Of a stretch of DNA of 44,488 nt, positions 6,148 to 40,667 are shown one piece after another. The translations under genes were made by a program, and so were the position numbers. This DNA comes from Escherichia phage vB_EcoD_Opt212. The DNA is taken from the sequence record NC_073055.1; one strand, written 5' to 3'. Position 1 is the first letter of the stretch, and each line of letters begins with the position of its first letter. The notes beneath the pieces are model-generated. The model saw nothing but the letters and a program-made list of their open reading frames with translations. It ran no database searches and had not been told where the DNA came from.

Positions 6148-6413
6148 TTCGCCAGTCTCCAGTGTTTGCCTACCCGCTCAACGGCAGGCTTTCGGCGTAA
6201 TGTAATACGAATCCCCATTGGTTGCAAGGAAGTCCGCACCCTGAAATCGTGTTGTGCTGCGAACTGGTGCAAGTAGCGAGTCTGCGTCAGTGGCTTTACG
6301 TCATCGCGATAGCACCAGTACACAGAATCCCCCACATTCGCATTCTTAGCCCATATTCGTATGCAATGCAGGGGAATATGCCACGAAAGCTGTTTTGCTC
6401 GCCTACGGCCCAT
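6144..6413 (-). CDS. hypothetical protein
   Basis: 89 aa, AAGGGG RBS, translationally coupled. Confidence 0.45.
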   Translation of the reverse strand: MGRRRAKQLSWHIPLHCIRIWAKNANVGDSVYWCYRDDVKPLTQTRYLHQFAAQHDFRVRTSLQPMGIRITLRRKPAVERVGKHWRLAK

Positions 6414-6422
6414 TTTGGCCCC

Positions 6423-6728
6423 TTATTTCGCAAGCTGGGTGAATAGCTCACGCTGGGCTTTAATCCGGGCGACGTTTGTCACTGCCTTATCGCCAATACC
6501 GAAGCGATATGCCAGGCGCTCGCGGGAGAATGCACGCGCGTATTCGTGGATTGCCTTCGCCAGCGTCTTCAGTTCGTCAAGGCTGGCATCCATGCCGTCG
6601 AGCGCATACATGATTGCCTGCTGGGCCAGTATTACTACATGCGCCGCGCGGTCTGCGTTGCCGTTCAGAGCCTTCGCTTCGTCCAGCTTCGCCAGGGCCA
6701 TTGCGTAATTCCAGATTAATGCTCTCAT
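6423..6728 (-). CDS. hypothetical protein
   Basis: 101 aa, GAGGAC RBS, first gene after long intergenic region. Confidence 0.55.
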   Translation of the reverse strand: MRALIWNYAMALAKLDEAKALNGNADRAAHVVILAQQAIMYALDGMDASLDELKTLAKAIHEYARAFSRERLAYRFGIGDKAVTNVARIKAQRELFTQLAK

Positions 6729-6909
6729 CGTTCAGTCCTCATGTTGGTGTGCAACCAATATTAATCACGCGCATGAAAAAGTTGATCGCTATCTGCTGCA
6801 ACGGCAAACTGCATTTCCCACTCTCCATTATCCAACCCGCATTGGTTGCCTAGTTCATCCGCGACCGCACTTCGCATCATGCTGCCGTGTATTTTGCAAT
6901 CCCCGGATT

Positions 6910-7083
6910 TTATTCAGTCTCAGACGAGGGGGGCCATTGACCCCCGTCTAGTCTGAAAGACTGGGGTGCTGTCCCGCTGTCCCGCTCCTCTGGAAGCCGC
7001 GCCATCCGGGGCGGGACGGGGGTGCTGTCCCGCTTTGTCCCGCCCGCTTTTTGTCCCGCTTTTTGTCCCGCTTACTTTATGCA
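6910..7083. repeat. GTCCCGC-iteron element, copy A
   Basis: 75-bp block identical to 34727..34801, then 6 direct and 1 inverted (T)GTCCCGC copies; overall similar to 34727..34899. Confidence 0.8.
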
Positions 7084-7157
7084 GTTTTATTGCATAACTA
7101 TTCATAATAATCACACTACACGGCAACCAATACGACCAGTTAAAAACACCCAAAATG

Positions 7158-7240
7158 GCAACCAATGCGCGCAAAATTTAATCTTTTAGCGATATGGGAA
7201 TTCCCATATCGGCAACCAATACGCGCAAAATTTAATCTTT
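7158..7240. promoter_or_regulatory. 22-bp perfect palindrome CGATATGGGAATTCCCATATCG (7190..7211) flanked by two ~29-bp direct repeats
   Basis: direct reading; repeats GGCAACCAAT(G/A)CGCGCAAAATTTAATCTTT; second copy overlaps primase stop. Confidence 0.7.
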
Positions 7241-9496
7241 CAGGTCGTCATCGGTCGCAGAAAGCGTGATGGGTATATTCGTTTTGATGACTATATTCGA
7301 CGACCCATAGATGGCCCCGGTGTGCGGATCGGTATAAAAACCTAACACTCCGCGCTCAACCATATCGTCTATTGCCTTCGTAGATGTGCCACCTTTTGCC
7401 AATCCCGCCTGGCGGACAATTGCCGATTTGCTGAATCCGGTATGGTCCGGGTTATCTTCCATCAGTTTTTCCAGTGCCGCATAAAGCACTTTCTCTTTTT
7501 CGTTGCGCGGTCCTGCGGCATTCTCGTCCTTAACCGCGGCCTTGCCAGCCGCCTTCGCCTGTTCTATAGCGAACGGTGCCAGGGCGACCGGTACGAGGTA
7601 GAGAGTCTCGTCGCGTGGCGTGGAGGCAATCGGCTTGACGTCCCATCCGGCAACCACGTCGCCGAAGTCTGGCCCGGTGCTGGTGGACTGGTGCGCCTCG
7701 AACGCTTCTGACTTGCGGAGATCCACCTTCACCTTGCACTTGAGCAGGACGAAGCCACGCGGCGCTTGCTTGATGCCGTTACGTGCCTTTTCGTGATACA
7801 GGTTCAATTGGCCTGGCTGGTTGTCGTCCGGCTGTTCCAGGAAGAACGCAGAATCGACAGCGCCATGCAGCGCGCCGGACCCGCGGGGGGTTCTGCTGCC
7901 GTTTGCACCCTTCGCCGGGTGGTGGATGACGCCCGCACTGCCACCTGTATTTTCCGCGATGGCCTTCAGCGCTTTGACCACTTCACCCATATCGCTGGCG
8001 TTGTTCTCGTCGAACGGTTTAGCATCCGCGGACCGCAACGCAACAGTCTGGTTGAGTGAGTCGAACGCCACCAGGCCAACCGGTTCGCCGTTAGCGGTGC
8101 GGTTGATGAAGCTGATAACTTCACGCAAGCCGGATTTGCTGGTGATATCCCAGCCGCGTGATTGCAGATCGATAATGTGCAGCTTGTCCAGGTCGTGCTC
8201 ATATTTAATCTGCAATGCTTCTTTGCGCTGGTTAGAGGCTTCGCCACCTTCCGCGTCGAAATAGAAGCAATGAGACTGGACGACCTTCGCACCGCCGAAC
8301 GGAATACCAGCGGCAACCGCGCCCATCTGCCCCAGCACGTAGAACGATTTACCGATGTTCGACTCACCCGCCATATACCAGGTTGATTTAAAGTTAATCA
8401 ACCCCTCGATAATCGGGTCGTGCTTACTGAACAGCGCAACCGGCTCGTTATCCAGATCCGCATCGGTGCACACGCCGTATTCTTCGCCGTCGCCAACCGC
8501 ATCCACAATATGTTCATATAAGGATTCGACTTCCTCGTCGTCCAGCCCTGGGAGGATGGCGGCGATTTGCTTACGGGACATGTTGTGCGGCTCGACGTTC
8601 AGGTGGTCCGGTATCCCGATGAGACGTAGCGCCAGGTGCTGGTGTCTGTTCAGTTCCGAGCAACACTCGTTGCCGGTGTGCATACACTTGAAACGGATCT
8701 CGCCATCCTTAACCATGATAGCGGTGGACCCTTCACCACTGTGCAGGTGTTCGTTCGGGCATGGCACTTCATAACCACGACCGGACGACAGCGGTTCGAA
8801 TCCTGCCTGGAAGCACCAGTCCAGAATGCCGTCTGCCACTGCGTCGTCGCCCTGGGTAAGCTCGCGGCGTACTTCCTCTTTTTCCACCCCCAGCTTATCA
8901 GCCAGGCGAAGCAGACGACGGACGCGGGCACGTTTGCCGTAGTGACACTTAACAACCGATTGCTGGTGAGGCAGGTACATAAGGCGGTTTGTGTCTTTCG
9001 TGCAATCGTCGAAGTCCACATCTGACAGGCCCAGTTGGTGTAATAGTGCATACTGGACGCGGCCCAGGTCTTCCGCCGGTACAGGCTTGTCAGTGAGCAC
9101 CAGGAAACGAGCGCAACGCGTGCCGCCTTTCAGCGGGTGGCGGTCGCCGGTAGTGGTGTGGAAGACGTGCTCCAGTCCCGCGTCGATGAACGCCTTACGG
9201 CAGCGGCGCAGGGTGCGGGTGTCGGTGCGGTCAATATCAAAGAACAGGATCGAGCGGTCCACGGCACTGGTCTTGCGGCGTAAGCCGTCACGGGTATAAG
9301 CCACAATACCATCAGCCTTACGCTTGCGGCGCGCATACTCCGCTTTATCTTCCGTCTTGTTGATATGCACCGAGGATATTTCTTTCGCATCATTAATAAA
9401 TTCGAAAAACTCATCGGTGGTCATCTGGAAGTTTTCCGCCCTGGCTTTTTCGCCTTTTTTAGCGGGTCGTGTTACAGCGAATTTAATTAAGCTCAT
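7232..9496 (-). CDS. DNA primase/helicase (primase-polymerase-like N-terminus, P-loop NTPase, C-terminal wHTH)
   Basis: 754 aa; Walker A-like GESNIGKSF; Cys/His cluster; acidic FFDIDRTD segment. Confidence 0.75.
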   Translation of the reverse strand: MSLIKFAVTRPAKKGEKARAENFQMTTDEFFEFINDAKEISSVHINKTEDKAEYARRKRKADGIVAYTRDGLRRKTSAVDRSILFFDIDRTDTRTLRRCRKAFIDAGLEHVFHTTTGDRHPLKGGTRCARFLVLTDKPVPAEDLGRVQYALLHQLGLSDVDFDDCTKDTNRLMYLPHQQSVVKCHYGKRARVRRLLRLADKLGVEKEEVRRELTQGDDAVADGILDWCFQAGFEPLSSGRGYEVPCPNEHLHSGEGSTAIMVKDGEIRFKCMHTGNECCSELNRHQHLALRLIGIPDHLNVEPHNMSRKQIAAILPGLDDEEVESLYEHIVDAVGDGEEYGVCTDADLDNEPVALFSKHDPIIEGLINFKSTWYMAGESNIGKSFYVLGQMGAVAAGIPFGGAKVVQSHCFYFDAEGGEASNQRKEALQIKYEHDLDKLHIIDLQSRGWDITSKSGLREVISFINRTANGEPVGLVAFDSLNQTVALRSADAKPFDENNASDMGEVVKALKAIAENTGGSAGVIHHPAKGANGSRTPRGSGALHGAVDSAFFLEQPDDNQPGQLNLYHEKARNGIKQAPRGFVLLKCKVKVDLRKSEAFEAHQSTSTGPDFGDVVAGWDVKPIASTPRDETLYLVPVALAPFAIEQAKAAGKAAVKDENAAGPRNEKEKVLYAALEKLMEDNPDHTGFSKSAIVRQAGLAKGGTSTKAIDDMVERGVLGFYTDPHTGAIYGSSNIVIKTNIPITLSATDDDLKD

Positions 9497-9506
9497 TGCC
9501 GTGGCC

Positions 9507-9836
9507 TTACTTAGAAGTTTTATTATTGCGTACCCAGGAGCGCACTGTGCTCTGATTAATTCCGGTTAGCTCTGCAATCATCGCCCATGATTTGCCCTCG
9601 GCGCGCAAACGGATAACCTGTTTTTTGTATTCTTCCATTTCTTCATTGTGTTTTTGCAGCTTGCTTGCTGCCGTGCCGTTGAGCAATTCCAGCTTCGCGG
9701 TAAGCTCCTTCTCAGCACGCGATAATCTGGACACTTCAAATAACAGAGTATCCACCGCATTTGTGTAATACCAGGATTTACCCGCTTCGCCGCGGATTGC
9801 ATTAGATAACACTTCAATTGCTTCTTTGATATTCAT
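9507..9836 (-). CDS. small HTH DNA-binding protein (putative regulator)
   Basis: 109 aa; C-terminal HTH (GKSWAMIAELTGINQSTVRSWV); first gene of leftward operon. Confidence 0.6.
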   Translation of the reverse strand: MNIKEAIEVLSNAIRGEAGKSWYYTNAVDTLLFEVSRLSRAEKELTAKLELLNGTAASKLQKHNEEMEEYKKQVIRLRAEGKSWAMIAELTGINQSTVRSWVRNNKTSK

Positions 9837-10016: not shown

Positions 10017-10046
10017 TTGACACCCATCCTGCAACCAATCTATCAT
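10017..10046 (+). promoter_or_regulatory. sigma70-like promoter (TTGACA-N18-TATCAT)
   Basis: hexamers read directly; spacer contains TGCAACCAAT motif. Confidence 0.45.
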
Positions 10047-10242
10047 TCACTCCGTCGACAGGATGCAGGACGCAAACTGGAGAGGGGCAACGAAGGGGCC
10101 GGATCGAAGTGTCAGGATTCCCAACCGTGATTATATAACCAGGTCCACTACCCGAACGGGAGAACGCGTAACCTGGCAATATGTTAAGGCCACCGACGAA
10201 GTTAACTGCCGACACCTAAACTTAACCAATCGGAGATATACC

Positions 10243-11237: not shown

Positions 11238-12667
11238 TGGCGATTAAACCAAAACGTAAAACGCAATCCGGTAGCAACACGGAACACTCATTACTCGGGC
11301 CGTCCGGTGCTAAAAAATGGATGGGTTGCCCTGCCGCCCTGGTGGTGGAAAAAGATATCCCGAACGAATCCGGGCAAGCGGCGATTAACGGTACGAGTAT
11401 GCACACCGTATCAGAGGTCGTGCTAAACCGCATTATCGCCGGTGAGAAGCTGATAACCGCGAAGACGTATAAAGGGTGCTACGTCGAGAACGAAGGCAAG
11501 GGGCCAGTAAAGGCCCACCCGAAAGCACCGAAAGGCGGCGTACTGGTCAACGACGACATGGTGAAACAGTGCGACGCGTACATCGACCACTGGCGACCGC
11601 TCCTCGAAGTGGCGGAGTTTGTTCAGCTTGAGATGCGCGCCGATCTGACCCGCGTCCTTCACTCAGGCTTCGAGATCGACGGCAACCTGGTTAAGACGTT
11701 CGGTACTGCCGATATGGTTATGGTCATGAAGAAGACCGACGGCACGTACATGCTGATTGTTGGCGACCTGAAGACGGGACGACATAAGGTCGAGGCGAAA
11801 GAAAACAAACAGCTTATGTTGTACGCGCTCGGCCTGCTGCGCAAGCTGAAAACTATGTACGACATTACGACCGTGCGCCTGGTTATCTTCCAGCCGTATT
11901 GCGGCGGGGCGTCGGAGTGGGATATTTCGGTAGAAGCCCTGGAGATATTCGCGAAGTTTGCGTCCAAGCGTGCTATCGCCGCCCTGGAAGCGTACGCCCG
12001 CGGCAAAAAGGGACTCACCCGTGCCGACTTCAGACCGAGCGTTGATGCGTGTCAGTGGTGCCGATTTGCGGATCAGTGTAGCGCCCGCGCTAAGGCCGCA
12101 ATCGACACGATGACCCCACCAACGGCAACAGACGAAGACCTGGGCGACGACGTGAGTATTGCGACAGAGGAAGAATGCGCCAATCACGATCGCAATATGA
12201 CCCGCGAAGCCCGCAAAGCGGCACGACGTGCGAAGCGTGGTAAGAAAGAAGCGGCCCCAGGCGCTATGACCGCCGCAGAACTGCGCAAGGCATATGAAGG
12301 TTTAGACGCAATGCGCCAGCACATCAAGGCTATAGAGTCCGCGGTATTCAAGGCGGTTATGGCTGGCGAAGGCGAATCGCTGGGCCTCAAAATGGTTGCC
12401 GGTAAGGAAGGGATCCGCAAGTGGGCGGACGAAAGCGAAGTGATTGAAATCTTCACGAAGGCCCGGATCAAGCGCGATGTTATGTACAAAGAAACATTAC
12501 TCAGCCCTACTGATGCCGAGAAGGTACTGAAGGACGAGAAGCCGAAAGTGTGGGCAAAGTTGTGTGATAAAATAACGCGCGCACCAGCTAAACCGGTATT
12601 AGCACCCATCGACGACCCGCGCCCTGCGTGGTCTGTAGCTACTGACGAGGACTTAAGCAATGAATAA
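11237..12667 (+). CDS. PD-(D/E)XK nuclease, DUF2800-like with Cas4-type Cys cluster
   Basis: 476 aa; N-terminal HSLLGPSGAKKWMGCP; GDLKTG and QLMLYALG motifs; CQWCRFADQC cysteines. Confidence 0.75.
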   Translation: MAIKPKRKTQSGSNTEHSLLGPSGAKKWMGCPAALVVEKDIPNESGQAAINGTSMHTVSEVVLNRIIAGEKLITAKTYKGCYVENEGKGPVKAHPKAPKGGVLVNDDMVKQCDAYIDHWRPLLEVAEFVQLEMRADLTRVLHSGFEIDGNLVKTFGTADMVMVMKKTDGTYMLIVGDLKTGRHKVEAKENKQLMLYALGLLRKLKTMYDITTVRLVIFQPYCGGASEWDISVEALEIFAKFASKRAIAALEAYARGKKGLTRADFRPSVDACQWCRFADQCSARAKAAIDTMTPPTATDEDLGDDVSIATEEECANHDRNMTREARKAARRAKRGKKEAAPGAMTAAELRKAYEGLDAMRQHIKAIESAVFKAVMAGEGESLGLKMVAGKEGIRKWADESEVIEIFTKARIKRDVMYKETLLSPTDAEKVLKDEKPKVWAKLCDKITRAPAKPVLAPIDDPRPAWSVATDEDLSNE

Positions 12668-12902
12668 AGTATTCGCAATATTATTGATGTTTGTTATCGG
12701 CGCGCTGGGCTTTATCCTGCATTGTGTGCATGGCGTGTTAATGGTGGCGTGGATGATTCGCCATCCGACCCGCTGGCTTGACGACGGATATAGTGACGCT
12801 GCCGTCGACTGGGTGGAGAAGAACATCGACCGACCGCCGTTAAGCTGGGTAGAGAACGCTACCGACTACGTTACCAGAAATCTTTTTAATAAAAGTGCTT
12901 GA
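12660..12902 (+). CDS. small membrane protein
   Basis: 80 aa, N-terminal TM segments. Confidence 0.5.
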   Translation: MNKVFAILLMFVIGALGFILHCVHGVLMVAWMIRHPTRWLDDGYSDAAVDWVEKNIDRPPLSWVENATDYVTRNLFNKSA

Positions 12903-12927
12903 CCGCTTAGGCGCAACCAAGTAGATT
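12899..12927 (+). promoter_or_regulatory. sigma70-like promoter (TTGACC-N17-TAGATT)
   Basis: spacer contains GCAACCAAG motif; upstream of 12993 gene. Confidence 0.4.
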
Positions 12928-12992
12928 AGCAACCAAGCCGAACGGGGTGGCTCATAATAACCCCGATACATGTGAAAATGAGGAATTGGAAA

Positions 12993-13775
12993 ATGGCTAA
13001 AGTCAACCTGAAAAATGTGCGCGTATGTTTCCTTAAAATTTGGGAACGTGATACCCCTAAACAGGATGGACAAAAACCGGCATACCGTGCAGTGATTCTC
13101 CTTGATAAAGAAGATCCGCAGGTGGACAAAGTGGAAGCGGCAGCGCGCGCAGTGCTCACCGACAAGCTGAAATCCGAGAAGAATGCTGATAAGTGGATGG
13201 ACCGCCACTACGCCCAGGATTCTAAGGAATGCGCAGTTCGCGACGGTGACGAGCGCGACGAAGTAACCGAAGAATTCGAAGGCATGTTGTACATCAACGC
13301 CAAATCGTTCAAACAGCCGATCATTCAAACGTCACTCGGCGAGAAGCAGACGGAACAAGGTCTGACCGTAGAAGGCGACGAGATCGAAGGCCAGGAGATC
13401 TACTCCGGTTGTTATTGCAATGTGTCCCTGGATATTTGGGCGTGGAACAATACCAACGGCAAGGGTCTCGGGGCTGGCTTGCTGGGTCTGCGATTCCGTG
13501 AAGACGGCGAAGCCTTCGGAGGTGGCGGGTCTTCTTGCTCCGATGAAGACCTGGACAACGACGACGAAGACGAAGCACCGCGCAAGTCCAAAAAGTCAAA
13601 ACGTCGTGATGACGATGATGAAGATGACAAGCCGCGCAAGTCCAAGAAATCCAAGCGCCGCGATGACGACGATGAGGAAGATGAAAAACCTCGCAAACGC
13701 CGCAAGTCCCGCGATGACGAAGATGAGGACGAAGACGACGAAGACGAAGCACCACGTAAACGTCGCCGCCGTTAA
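12993..13775 (+). CDS. DUF2815-like ssDNA-binding protein with charged repeat tail
   Basis: ATG with AGGAA RBS; N-terminus MAKVNLKNVRVCF; C-terminal repeats PRKSKKSKRRDDDDE. Confidence 0.65.
   Translation: MAKVNLKNVRVCFLKIWERDTPKQDGQKPAYRAVILLDKEDPQVDKVEAAARAVLTDKLKSEKNADKWMDRHYAQDSKECAVRDGDERDEVTEEFEGMLYINAKSFKQPIIQTSLGEKQTEQGLTVEGDEIEGQEIYSGCYCNVSLDIWAWNNTNGKGLGAGLLGLRFREDGEAFGGGGSSCSDEDLDNDDEDEAPRKSKKSKRRDDDDEDDKPRKSKKSKRRDDDDEEDEKPRKRRKSRDDEDEDEDDEDEAPRKRRRR
13562..13772 (+). repeat. tandem coding repeats (acidic/basic modules, 3 copies)
   Basis: repeated DDDDEDDKPRKSKKSKRR units at protein and DNA level. Confidence 0.6.
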
Positions 13776-20640: not shown

Positions 20641-21107
20641 AACTACTGATTTGTGATCTTGATGGCGTTATTAATGGTTCGAGTGATGCACGCGCCGACC
20701 TGGTTCCGGGTATAAAAACCAAATCAACATTTTGGGCGAAGTGGCACAAAGCGCACGTACGCGAAGACCTGAACATGGATATGCTGCCGCTGCTGCGCAT
20801 GTACAAAGAGCAAGGCTTCGAGATAGCGTATCTGACTAACCGGCAGCGCGAATGCTGGGAGACAACCGCCGAGCAACTGGAGGTCTTCCCCGCAGGGCGG
20901 TTGTTTATGCGCCACATGCTGGACGACACCCCTCCGCCTGAGTTTAAGGCGTGCGCCGTGTTCAAGATGGTCTGCTATGCAGACGTGTCGGAACTGGTCA
21001 TCATTGAAGATTGCGAGAAGAACATCGCGGCAATTCGTCGGGCGTGCAGCGATCTGGTGCCGAAAATTTACGCAATAAATGTTGCAAAATTTACTTGCAA
21101 CCAATAG
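20637..21107 (+). CDS. HAD-superfamily phosphatase/nucleotidase-like protein
   Basis: 156 aa; N-terminal LICDLDGVI (DxDG motif). Confidence 0.6.
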   Translation: MKLLICDLDGVINGSSDARADLVPGIKTKSTFWAKWHKAHVREDLNMDMLPLLRMYKEQGFEIAYLTNRQRECWETTAEQLEVFPAGRLFMRHMLDDTPPPEFKACAVFKMVCYADVSELVIIEDCEKNIAAIRRACSDLVPKIYAINVAKFTCNQ

Positions 21108-21124
21108 GTTGGTTGCACTATAGT
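21095..21124 (+). promoter_or_regulatory. candidate promoter TTGCAA-N18-TATAGT overlapping palindrome TTGCAACCAAT-AGG-TTGGTTGCA
   Basis: direct reading. Confidence 0.35.
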
Positions 21125-34726: not shown

Positions 34727-34899
34727 TTATTCAGTCTCAGACGAGGGGGGCCATTGACCCCCGTCTAGTCTGAAAGACTGGGGTGCTGTCCCGCTGTCCC
34801 GATCGGCTGAAAACCGCGGCAGCACTGGCGGGGACGGGGTGCTGTCCCGTTTTGTCCCGCCCCTTGTTTGTCCCGCTTTCTGTCCCGCTTACTTTATGC
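34727..34899. repeat. GTCCCGC-iteron element, copy B
   Basis: first 75 bp identical to 6910..6984; similar iteron array. Confidence 0.8.
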
Positions 34900-34924
34900 A
34901 ATAAAACTGCATAGGTATGCACAT

Positions 34925-35043
34925 TTACAGGGCGTGACAAAACGGGACGTCCCGCCTGTCCCGCTTTGAGTTTATGCAATGAAAGTGATTAGATATGCGG
35001 TTTTACAGAGGCGGGACAAAACGGGACGTCCCGCCTGTCCCGC
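34925..35043. repeat. two tandem ~78-bp units each with 12-bp palindrome CGGGACGTCCCG
   Basis: palindromes at about 34943..34954 and 35022..35033 with flanking GTCCCGC/GCGGGAC. Confidence 0.75.
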
Positions 35044-40608: not shown

Positions 40609-40638
40609 TTGCAATCCGCGTATTGGTTGCACTATATT
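40609..40638 (+). promoter_or_regulatory. candidate promoter TTGCAA-N18-TATATT with tandem ATTGGTTGCAC motifs
   Basis: direct reading; upstream of plus-strand island. Confidence 0.4.
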
Positions 40639-40667
40639 GGTTGCACACCAACAACGAGGACACAAAA

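Follow-up and report, generated by a model that had tools for sequence, protein, structure and literature searches.

A binding site can lie inside the gene of the protein that recognises it, as parS does within parB/spo0J, and palindromes can be inserted in frame in genes, as are the Rickettsia palindromic elements. Satellite phage P4, in turn, combines ori and crr with its alpha primase-helicase. The precedent closest to the subject of this article comes from prophage defence: BstA, a prophage protein acting by abortive infection, stops the replication of phage DNA (Owen et al., 2021, Cell Host Microbe; PMC8585504), and its own prophage is shielded by aba, a short element of the bstA locus that exerts its effect as DNA, is active in trans when multicopy, and protects phage P22 when transplanted (PMC8585504). 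The one mapped aba, that of BTP1, spans 63 bp at the gene start and has terminal CCCGCC direct repeats (PMC8585504). Here we examine a perfect 22-bp palindrome, CGATATGGGAATTCCCATATCG, at positions 7190-7211 of the genome of Escherichia phage vB_EcoD_Opt212 (NC_073055.1), whose 44,488 nucleotides were analysed as a whole and are called the window below. The palindrome, which being symmetrical has no strand, lies between two direct repeats at the 3' end of a helicase-primase gene and reproduces, as an orphan, the commonest allele of a palindrome carried inside genes for KilA-N/BstA proteins, where it is selected as DNA and not as protein. We consider it possible, with a probability of roughly 0.4, that the phage palindrome is a pirated aba-like site, or a decoy, placed beside a putative replication origin.

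Like aba, the family to which the phage palindrome belongs is a short DNA element within a defence gene's own locus; the BstA C-terminal domain is common to BstA-BTP1 and most of the palindrome-bearing KilA-N proteins scanned; and BstA targets phage DNA replication, while the phage palindrome sits beside what may be an origin. The two differ in size and place, the 63 bp at the start of one gene contrasting with 22 bp in the KilA-N coding part of the other, and in that the palindrome has an allele shared across phyla. With parS and the Rickettsia elements it shares conservation as DNA in a coding part that tolerates very different residues, but it is only 22 bp long, always occupies the same position of one domain family, is bound by a protein only putatively, and has arms that evolve by compensatory change in place and not by repeated insertion. 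The repeat region around the phage copy (through the record of phage SO-1) and DNA-based self-immunity as a concept were already known. In the literature searched we found no mention of the palindrome sequence or of a KilA-N gene combined with a palindrome, no report of the cassette polymorphism or the genome-wide GCAACCAAT motif described below, and no description of a natural orphan aba-like copy in a virulent phage.

An optional 54-bp cassette at the helicase-primase stop codon

The initial annotation, made from the letters of the window, had pointed to a perfect palindrome flanked by near-identical repeats of 29 nt. The palindrome is indeed perfect, with two arms of 11 nt and no spacer, and occurs once in the window even when up to three mismatches are allowed; random sequence of 44.5 kb should contain about 0.01 perfect 22-bp palindromes (44488 x 4^-11). 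Drawn as a hairpin it has a 9-bp stem and a 4-nt loop, and a DNA fold of 7150-7250 gives a 9-bp stem, with -14.5 kcal/mol for all 101 nt. The repeats, GGCAACCAAT(G/A)CGCGCAAAATTTAATCTTT, are present as claimed, at 7157-7186 and 7211-7240 on the plus strand, but each is 30 nt long, and the start first proposed, 7158, is one base late; 29 of their 30 positions are identical, their starts are 54 nt apart, and their similarity reaches 41 nt at 88% (7149-7189 against 7203-7243). G7211 is common to the palindrome and the second repeat, and this repeat covers, as had been noted, the stop codon of the helicase-primase gene (7232-7234) and its final two codons (Lys, Asp) on the minus strand. The first repeat, GGCAACCAATGCGCGCAAAATTTAATCTTT, is the extra copy, which together with 7187-7210 makes a 54-bp unit of one repeat plus palindrome; the second is the copy kept in nearly all relatives sampled in the alignment. 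Exact further copies of the 13-nt head of the repeat occur as a third GGCAACCAATACG box with ACAC before it (7122-7134, plus strand) and as an inverted GGCAACCAATGCG box on the far side of an iteron block (6838-6850, minus strand). Both had been overlooked, as had the six adjoining TGTCCCGC iterons and the indel status of the unit. The surrounding 500-bp non-coding stretch (6729-7231), between the helicase-primase gene and the next leftward gene, has GGCAACCAATRCG as an exact box three times in direct and once in inverted orientation, and the direct repeat duplicates the GGCAACCAATRCG module nearest the primase.

The window belongs to the Dhillonviruses, HK578/SO-1-like virulent siphophages of E. 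coli with genomes of about 44 kb, and a 601-bp piece surrounding the element has matches in 157 phage records, almost exclusively from Dhillonvirus; no chromosome among the E. coli genomes searched has a copy of the region, which is therefore not a prophage. For an alignment of the primase-proximal DNA, 14 relatives were taken from IMG/VR through the protein, a sample that is unbiased regarding the element. The 54-bp unit is cleanly missing in eight of them (L003, L005, L007, L009, L010, L013, L014 and L016, which include HK578, SO-1 and SSL-2009a), each of which retains a single repeat copy; EP23 (L006) is also without the palindrome, through a larger deletion, and the remaining five carry the unit. 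In GenBank, 81 of the approximately 150 records holding the region contain the palindrome, and Bas15 (PaulFeyerabend) of the BASEL collection is a carrier too. Copy number varies upward as well, to three palindromes in SM_S24 and five 53-bp units in Teewinot (PNS1 and PTXU06 each gave two palindrome-search matches, uninspected). On a primase tree the carriers (the window, L002, L004, L008, L011 and L015) are interleaved with non-carriers, and both outgroups lack the 54-bp unit.

The cassette is an accessory, unstable insertion. An essential operator or origin would be present in all close relatives, which the 54-bp unit is not; because about half of the closest relatives are without it, it is not an essential operator, part of an origin or a recombination site, and as the palindrome occurs once in the window, it has no partner sites. 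The proposal of an operator or recombination site thus stands only in part: a role in protein binding, or at the DNA level, is still the best reading, and the search of related genomes that accompanied the proposal, now run, finds the palindrome in just part of the Dhillonviruses. As to the arrays themselves, the one in Teewinot (L030, 1892-2150) is a fivefold tandem, and in four of its units the right arm is replaced by CCCAAAATG, while the threefold one in SM_S24 (L029, 1989-2240) lies within a larger 111-bp duplication. A CRISPR-like mini-array was considered and, judged by its spacers, dismissed, the same "spacer" palindrome being repeated in all units of the multi-copy relatives.

The palindrome in genes for KilA-N and BstA proteins

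A 30-nt query returned perfect matches of 23-24 nt in unrelated temperate phages with unrelated flanks, and the match to KilA-N genes of E. coli phages is 24/24 nt. Of 5426 complete E. coli genomes 936 contain the palindrome, as do at least 120 viral contigs and at least 80 species-representative genomes from many phyla, where 0.14 would be expected by chance; the taxa bearing it include Nostocales, Saprospiraceae, Rhizobiales, Dehalococcoidia, Bacillota, Spirochaetia and Enterobacterales, among others. Seventy of the 190 classifiable sites lie in open reading frames (ORFs) with a KilA-N domain, at one homologous position, and the rest form 38 groups with unrelated flanks. The window palindrome is identical both to the commonest allele in KilA-N genes and to an allele common in E. 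coli prophages. It is no remnant of a phage KilA-N gene, since its flanks are dissimilar and the scan of the window's proteins found neither a KilA-N nor a BstA protein.

Several of the other occurrences are worth recording in their own right. Orphan palindromes recur at fixed non-coding places of enterobacterial prophages: in lambdoid nin regions (L060, L066, L072, L124 and L131), immediately 5' of an intrinsic terminator; in L032 and 45 similar contigs (PPompW-type prophages); and in L059, at a prophage end by a truncated tqsA. Non-coding arrays of palindromes are present in an Alcaligenaceae metagenome-assembled genome (L081, 2528-2704), in L122 (4455-4496) and in L233 (13856 onwards), Tolypothrix being represented among them, and consist of two to four different 22-nt palindromes whose design is likewise 9+4+9 around a GGAATTCC core, as in TGAAACGGGAATTCCCGTTTCA and CGTTGCAGGAATTCCCGCAACG; in the Alcaligenaceae genome and in Tolypothrix the exact window palindrome adjoins the array.

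How the palindrome is kept within KilA-N genes can be read from two samples. Retrieval by a degenerate peptide pattern, which is blind to codon choice, yielded 22 distinct proteins, 65-100% identical, whose palindrome codons are frozen: Asp is GAT in 22/22, Pro is CCC in 22/22, and Ile is ATA in 21/21. Every other invariant column uses two to six codons, and CCC accounts for just 1/22 and 5/21 at the other two prolines. Moreover, one clade translates these 22 nt as DMGIPIS, and KilA-N genes of the Saprospiraceae type translate them in the RYGNSHI frame. An unbiased metagenome sample of this latter clade revealed many alleles at the same position, including CGTTATGGGAATTCCCATAACG, CGTTACGGGAATTCCCGTAACG, CGATATTCCAAATGGAATATCG, CGTTACTGGGATTCCAGTAACG, CGTTATCGGAAATCCGATAACG and CGTTATGCAGATCTGCATAACG, whose peptides vary freely (RYSKWNI, RYWDSSN, RYRKSDN, RYADLHN) while the two 9-nt arms remain complementary. 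Over 29 alleles, 92% of cells are paired as against 74% in shuffles, and 47 double-sided changes are seen as against 17.4 +/- 2.6, with 0 of 500 shuffles reaching the observed value in either comparison; five of the nine pairs co-vary, and slid controls pair at 27-49%. It is on the frozen codons, the two reading frames and the co-varying arms that the conclusion of DNA-level selection is founded. A possible objection, that the palindrome might be constrained only as coding sequence, is in this way turned round: the phage copy is non-coding, and the copies that do lie in coding sequence, in KilA-N genes, are constrained as DNA. In some metagenome members of a Bacteroidota-type KilA-N clade (L369-L373, L378 and L382-L388) the palindrome segment is absent (…EEDYKKGGDPKEVLRIV…), so that it resembles an insertion placed where a loop of the KilA-N domain is permissive.

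Among the non-Watson-Crick cells of these alleles G-U pairs are not enriched (5/26), which agrees better with DNA symmetry than with an RNA hairpin and bears on another explanation of the phage copy, namely an RNA element in the 3' untranslated region (UTR) of the helicase-primase mRNA, which might stabilise the message as a hairpin, be cut by RNase III or act as a factor-dependent terminator. On the coding strand the palindrome begins 21 nt past the stop codon, and the 3' UTR folds at -34.2 kcal/mol (z = -4.0), as such an element might; yet the unit is absent in half of the relatives, Rfam has no match for it (a search of 6700-7400 returned just two hits at chance level, E = 7-8), a U-run is wanting, and the aba precedent acts as DNA (PMC8585504), all of which makes this explanation very improbable. 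With a Rho-independent terminator the palindrome shares a G+C-containing hairpin just past a stop codon but not the U-tract: on the mRNA strand the hairpin is followed by CUAAAAGAUU, without a U-run, as the initial annotation had correctly stated, and a scan of 6300-7500 places no terminator here, so an intrinsic terminator was rejected. A promoter scan found none in the repeats, and a sigma-54-like promoter seen by eye, TGGCAACCAATGCGC, was discarded because its first T and its -12 GC are not conserved among the copies.

The link to BstA comes from the proteins in whose genes the palindrome is embedded. The E. coli phage protein encoded by such a gene matches KilA-N (4e-27) and the BstA C-terminal domain (PADLOC, 3e-21), and in PhiR5_2 the palindrome-bearing KilA-N gene directly follows cI. 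E. coli prophage genes for KilA-N-type BstA proteins include ON470614 12608-13381 and the one that follows cI in PV340546. All seven DMGIPIS-frame proteins scanned (two from E. coli phages and five from other orders) have the BstA C-terminal domain, so that five of the six proteins scanned from other orders match BstA; the exception is the Saprospiraceae protein of the RYGNSHI frame, which has a different C-terminus. Like aba, then, the palindrome family is located inside a BstA-family defence locus, the window copy being an orphan. BstA-BTP1 itself, whose aba maps elsewhere in the locus, has a different N-terminal domain and no comparable palindrome, and this fits the idea of cognate sites; its C-terminal domain shares 32% identity with the E. 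coli protein's. That the palindrome might simply be the published BTP1 aba was rejected, the sequences being unlike.

A candidate pirated immunity site

In the mechanism that we propose, the KilA-N palindrome would be the self-recognition, or immunity, site of KilA-N-type BstA proteins, of which lytic Dhillonviruses would have picked up an orphan copy next to their origin. This copy would bind or titrate the defence protein, and phage replication would thereby be protected in lysogens; the 30-bp flanking repeats would make the cassette easily lost by slippage, giving the palindrome-less phages, and easily amplified. Most of the differences among Dhillonvirus palindromes fall on two central loop positions that are also variable in KilA-N genes. 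The pirated-site reading is favoured because the phage copy is the E. coli prophage allele, because variation affects the same two central positions, and because orphan copies exist in other mobile DNA.

Several points weigh against it. The connection between the palindrome and BstA immunity is drawn from sequence and analogy, and the origin function of the surrounding region from its anatomy. The sole mapped aba, that of BTP1, differs in sequence and has direct and not inverted repeats, and aba has been argued to be cognate, specific to each BstA variant (PMC8585504), whereas the palindrome allele is shared across phyla. Absence from half of the genus shows that the cassette is unneeded on common laboratory hosts. 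Several Dhillonvirus palindromes (L002, L008 and L011) have one-sided, uncompensated changes, and with the degraded right arm of four of the five amplified Teewinot units the palindrome is not preserved there. The right arm, moreover, resembles the sequence before the first repeat (CCCATATCG against CCCAAAATG), and this leaves room for a partly local origin of the palindrome.

Some of these points agree with a different explanation, a neutral copy-number polymorphism in which the 54-bp unit is a product of slippage or unequal recombination and the palindrome is functionless, either filler captured once from a prophage or the work of chance. Direct repeats of 30 bp around a palindrome are a classic deletion-prone arrangement, which is the one seen here; presence or absence and copy numbers of one to five follow exact repeat boundaries; the carriers are patchily placed on the primase tree; and the decayed Teewinot arms and the uncompensated changes point the same way. 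We nevertheless think this somewhat unlikely. The palindrome is identical at 22/22 positions (24/24 with flanks) to a motif selected as DNA, for which the E-values put chance at about 1e-3 to 1e-4, its differences keep mostly to the two loop positions just mentioned, as in KilA-N genes, and a unit so easily deleted is still kept in about half of the genus.

Pirating of the palindrome would, if it holds for the Dhillonviruses, be the first example from nature of a lytic phage that evades abortive infection by copying a DNA immunity element, and if the orphan copy protects, it would be a cheap counter-defence of 22 bp that needs no protein. Such a counter-defence is relevant to the selection and engineering of therapeutic coliphages, Dhillonviruses being common in such collections. 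Beyond the phage, the palindrome is a short element evolving as DNA inside a protein-coding defence gene, from Cyanobacteria to Enterobacteria; it is a concrete candidate for the unmapped immunity sites of BstA proteins other than that of BTP1, and a handle on the recognition target of the bacterial KilA-N domain. A wider idea, which we put forward only tentatively and hold to be rather doubtful, is that the palindrome might be a widespread "self" tag in KilA-N-type BstA genes, whose arms diversify into specificity alleles and which is pirated by mobile elements that replicate amid BstA. The Dhillonviruses, with one to five copies by the origin, would then be one example, and the lambdoid prophages with orphan copies and the multi-allele arrays (L081, L122) would be others.

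Origin-like surroundings and a dispersed box motif

The gene whose end the second repeat overlaps (7232-9496, minus strand) encodes a replicative helicase-primase of 754 amino acids with an AAA_25 helicase core at residues 357-531, under which name the records of relatives annotate its homologue; its C-terminal ~150 residues read like a winged-helix region. Downstream of it, at 6970-7071 on the plus strand, six TGTCCCGC iterons, putative binding sites of an initiator, make up what is here called region B. The window contains 16 copies of TGTCCCGC against 2.3 expected, in two clusters 28 kb apart, the second of which, region A (34729-35043, plus strand), has seven copies, one of them inverted, at 34787-35043, and neither a GCAACCAAT box nor the palindrome. 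A block of about 75 nt at 6910-6985 (plus strand), within which lies a G+C-rich inverted repeat (6920-6956), matches 34729-34803 of region A by eye, the two being unaligned. The same two loci are labelled "region A" and "region B" in the GenBank record of Sodalis phage SO-1 (NC_013600), the part of which available to us mentions direct, inverted and palindromic repeats and the similarity of region B to region A. Region B of SO-1 lies, as here, between the helicase-primase and the next gene; it differs in that SO-1 (L007) is without the 54-bp cassette, and that part of the record text does not concern the cassette.

As in iteron-type origins, a cluster of TGTCCCGC repeats lies by the initiator gene and a second locus elsewhere, and from this anatomy it is plausible that the region is such an origin. 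Relatives with a primase only ~44% identical keep the layout, with GAATAGTTATGCA followed by iterons of their own and then by ACACGGCA(A/G)C. In L021, L023 and L026 these lineage-specific iterons are TTCCGACAG, AGGGATAA and GGGGATGA, and GAATAGTTATGCA is present twice downstream of the primase; since these relatives keep the motifs around their own iterons, the origin-like architecture is older than the iteron sequences. GC skew gives no origin signal, tracking gene orientation only, and the literature searched contained no experimental work on Dhillonvirus origins, only the GenBank note on SO-1. As in P4, a large protein joins a primase, a helicase and, by our prediction, a probable origin-binding C-terminus, and its gene has short iterons clustered immediately downstream and another cluster of them at a distance of kilobases, but the iteron sequence of P4 is other than TGTCCCGC, and nothing comparable to the palindrome cassette or the GCAACCAAT boxes is known from P4.

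The head of the direct repeat, GCAACCAAT, has 14 copies in the window against 0.53 expected. Besides those at the cassette it is found at 6217, 6751, 6841, 10031, 16739, 19180, 19197, 21097, 24518, 40622 and 40636, sites that are conserved across the genus, and most of the copies checked are intergenic or beside gene starts, in varying orientation and position. The copy at 10031 lies in the spacer of TTGACA-N18-TATCAT, ahead of the rightward gene at 10063, a promoter read by eye that is beyond both the 16-18 nt spacer limit and the region of the promoter scan. The copy at 21097 forms an inverted pair, GCAACCAATAGGTTGGTTGC (21097-21116), and others form tandem pairs (19180/19197 and 40622/40636); a TGCAACCAATA box at 6750-6760 (plus strand) precedes the start of the leftward gene 6423-6728 by 22 nt, an arrangement that recurs at 40622-40644. 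A distant relative, L035 (IMGVR_UViG_2700989012_000001), with a primase 46-48% identical, has GCAACCAA 16 times in 22 kb; at 12269-13034 seven forward GCAACCAAC copies run from just before the primase stop to ~270 bp past it, and three inverted ones lie further downstream. Dispersal at promoter-like places, together with conservation in the genus and in L035, makes GCAACCAAT probably the binding site of a phage regulator. A reasonable candidate for its binder is a 109-amino-acid helix-turn-helix (HTH) protein encoded upstream of the helicase-primase (9507-9836, minus strand; HTH_23, Sigma70_r4_2), because HK578 has kept the HTH motif of this protein but not its N-terminus or the rest; nothing links it to the palindrome. 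L035, which shares the box, is without this protein and has an XRE-type HTH protein in its place, and the C-terminus of its primase differs too.

These surroundings are the ground for a further explanation of the cassette, close to the operator first suggested, in which it would be an accessory part of the origin or a phage regulatory site: the GGCAACCAAT module would add sites for a phage protein, either the HTH protein or, by its C-terminal domain, the helicase-primase, and the palindrome, as a hairpin or cruciform, would aid unwinding or priming. The unit does adjoin the iterons and the 3' end of the initiator gene, the GCAACCAAT boxes form a cluster here and elsewhere stand at promoter-like sites, the boxes of L035 are likewise grouped around the primase stop, and the 9-bp stem of the hairpin is stable. 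We judge this unlikely all the same, as half of the genus does without the unit, the palindrome occurs nowhere else in the genome, region A included, and the presence of the same 22 nt in KilA-N genes across phyla is left unexplained. What the comparison shows is that the operator-like look of the region is composite, made up of a block of iterons resembling an origin, a regulator motif with dispersed copies and a foreign palindrome.

Two minor observations concern the phage at large. A small stem-loop, TGCAGTTTTATTGCA (7081-7095, no strand), has its loop flipped to TGCAATAAAACTGCA in L002, L011, L013 and L015 and in region A (34898-34912), and this loop-inversion polymorphism suggests that hairpins form here in vivo. 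Two ORFs of the window match Nmad5 (nucleotide-modification-associated domain 5; best E = 2e-30), and other products of the window are methyltransferases like Dam and Dcm, a DpdE/SNF2-like helicase and a DUF2800 PD-(D/E)XK protein; together these hint at DNA modification in the genus.

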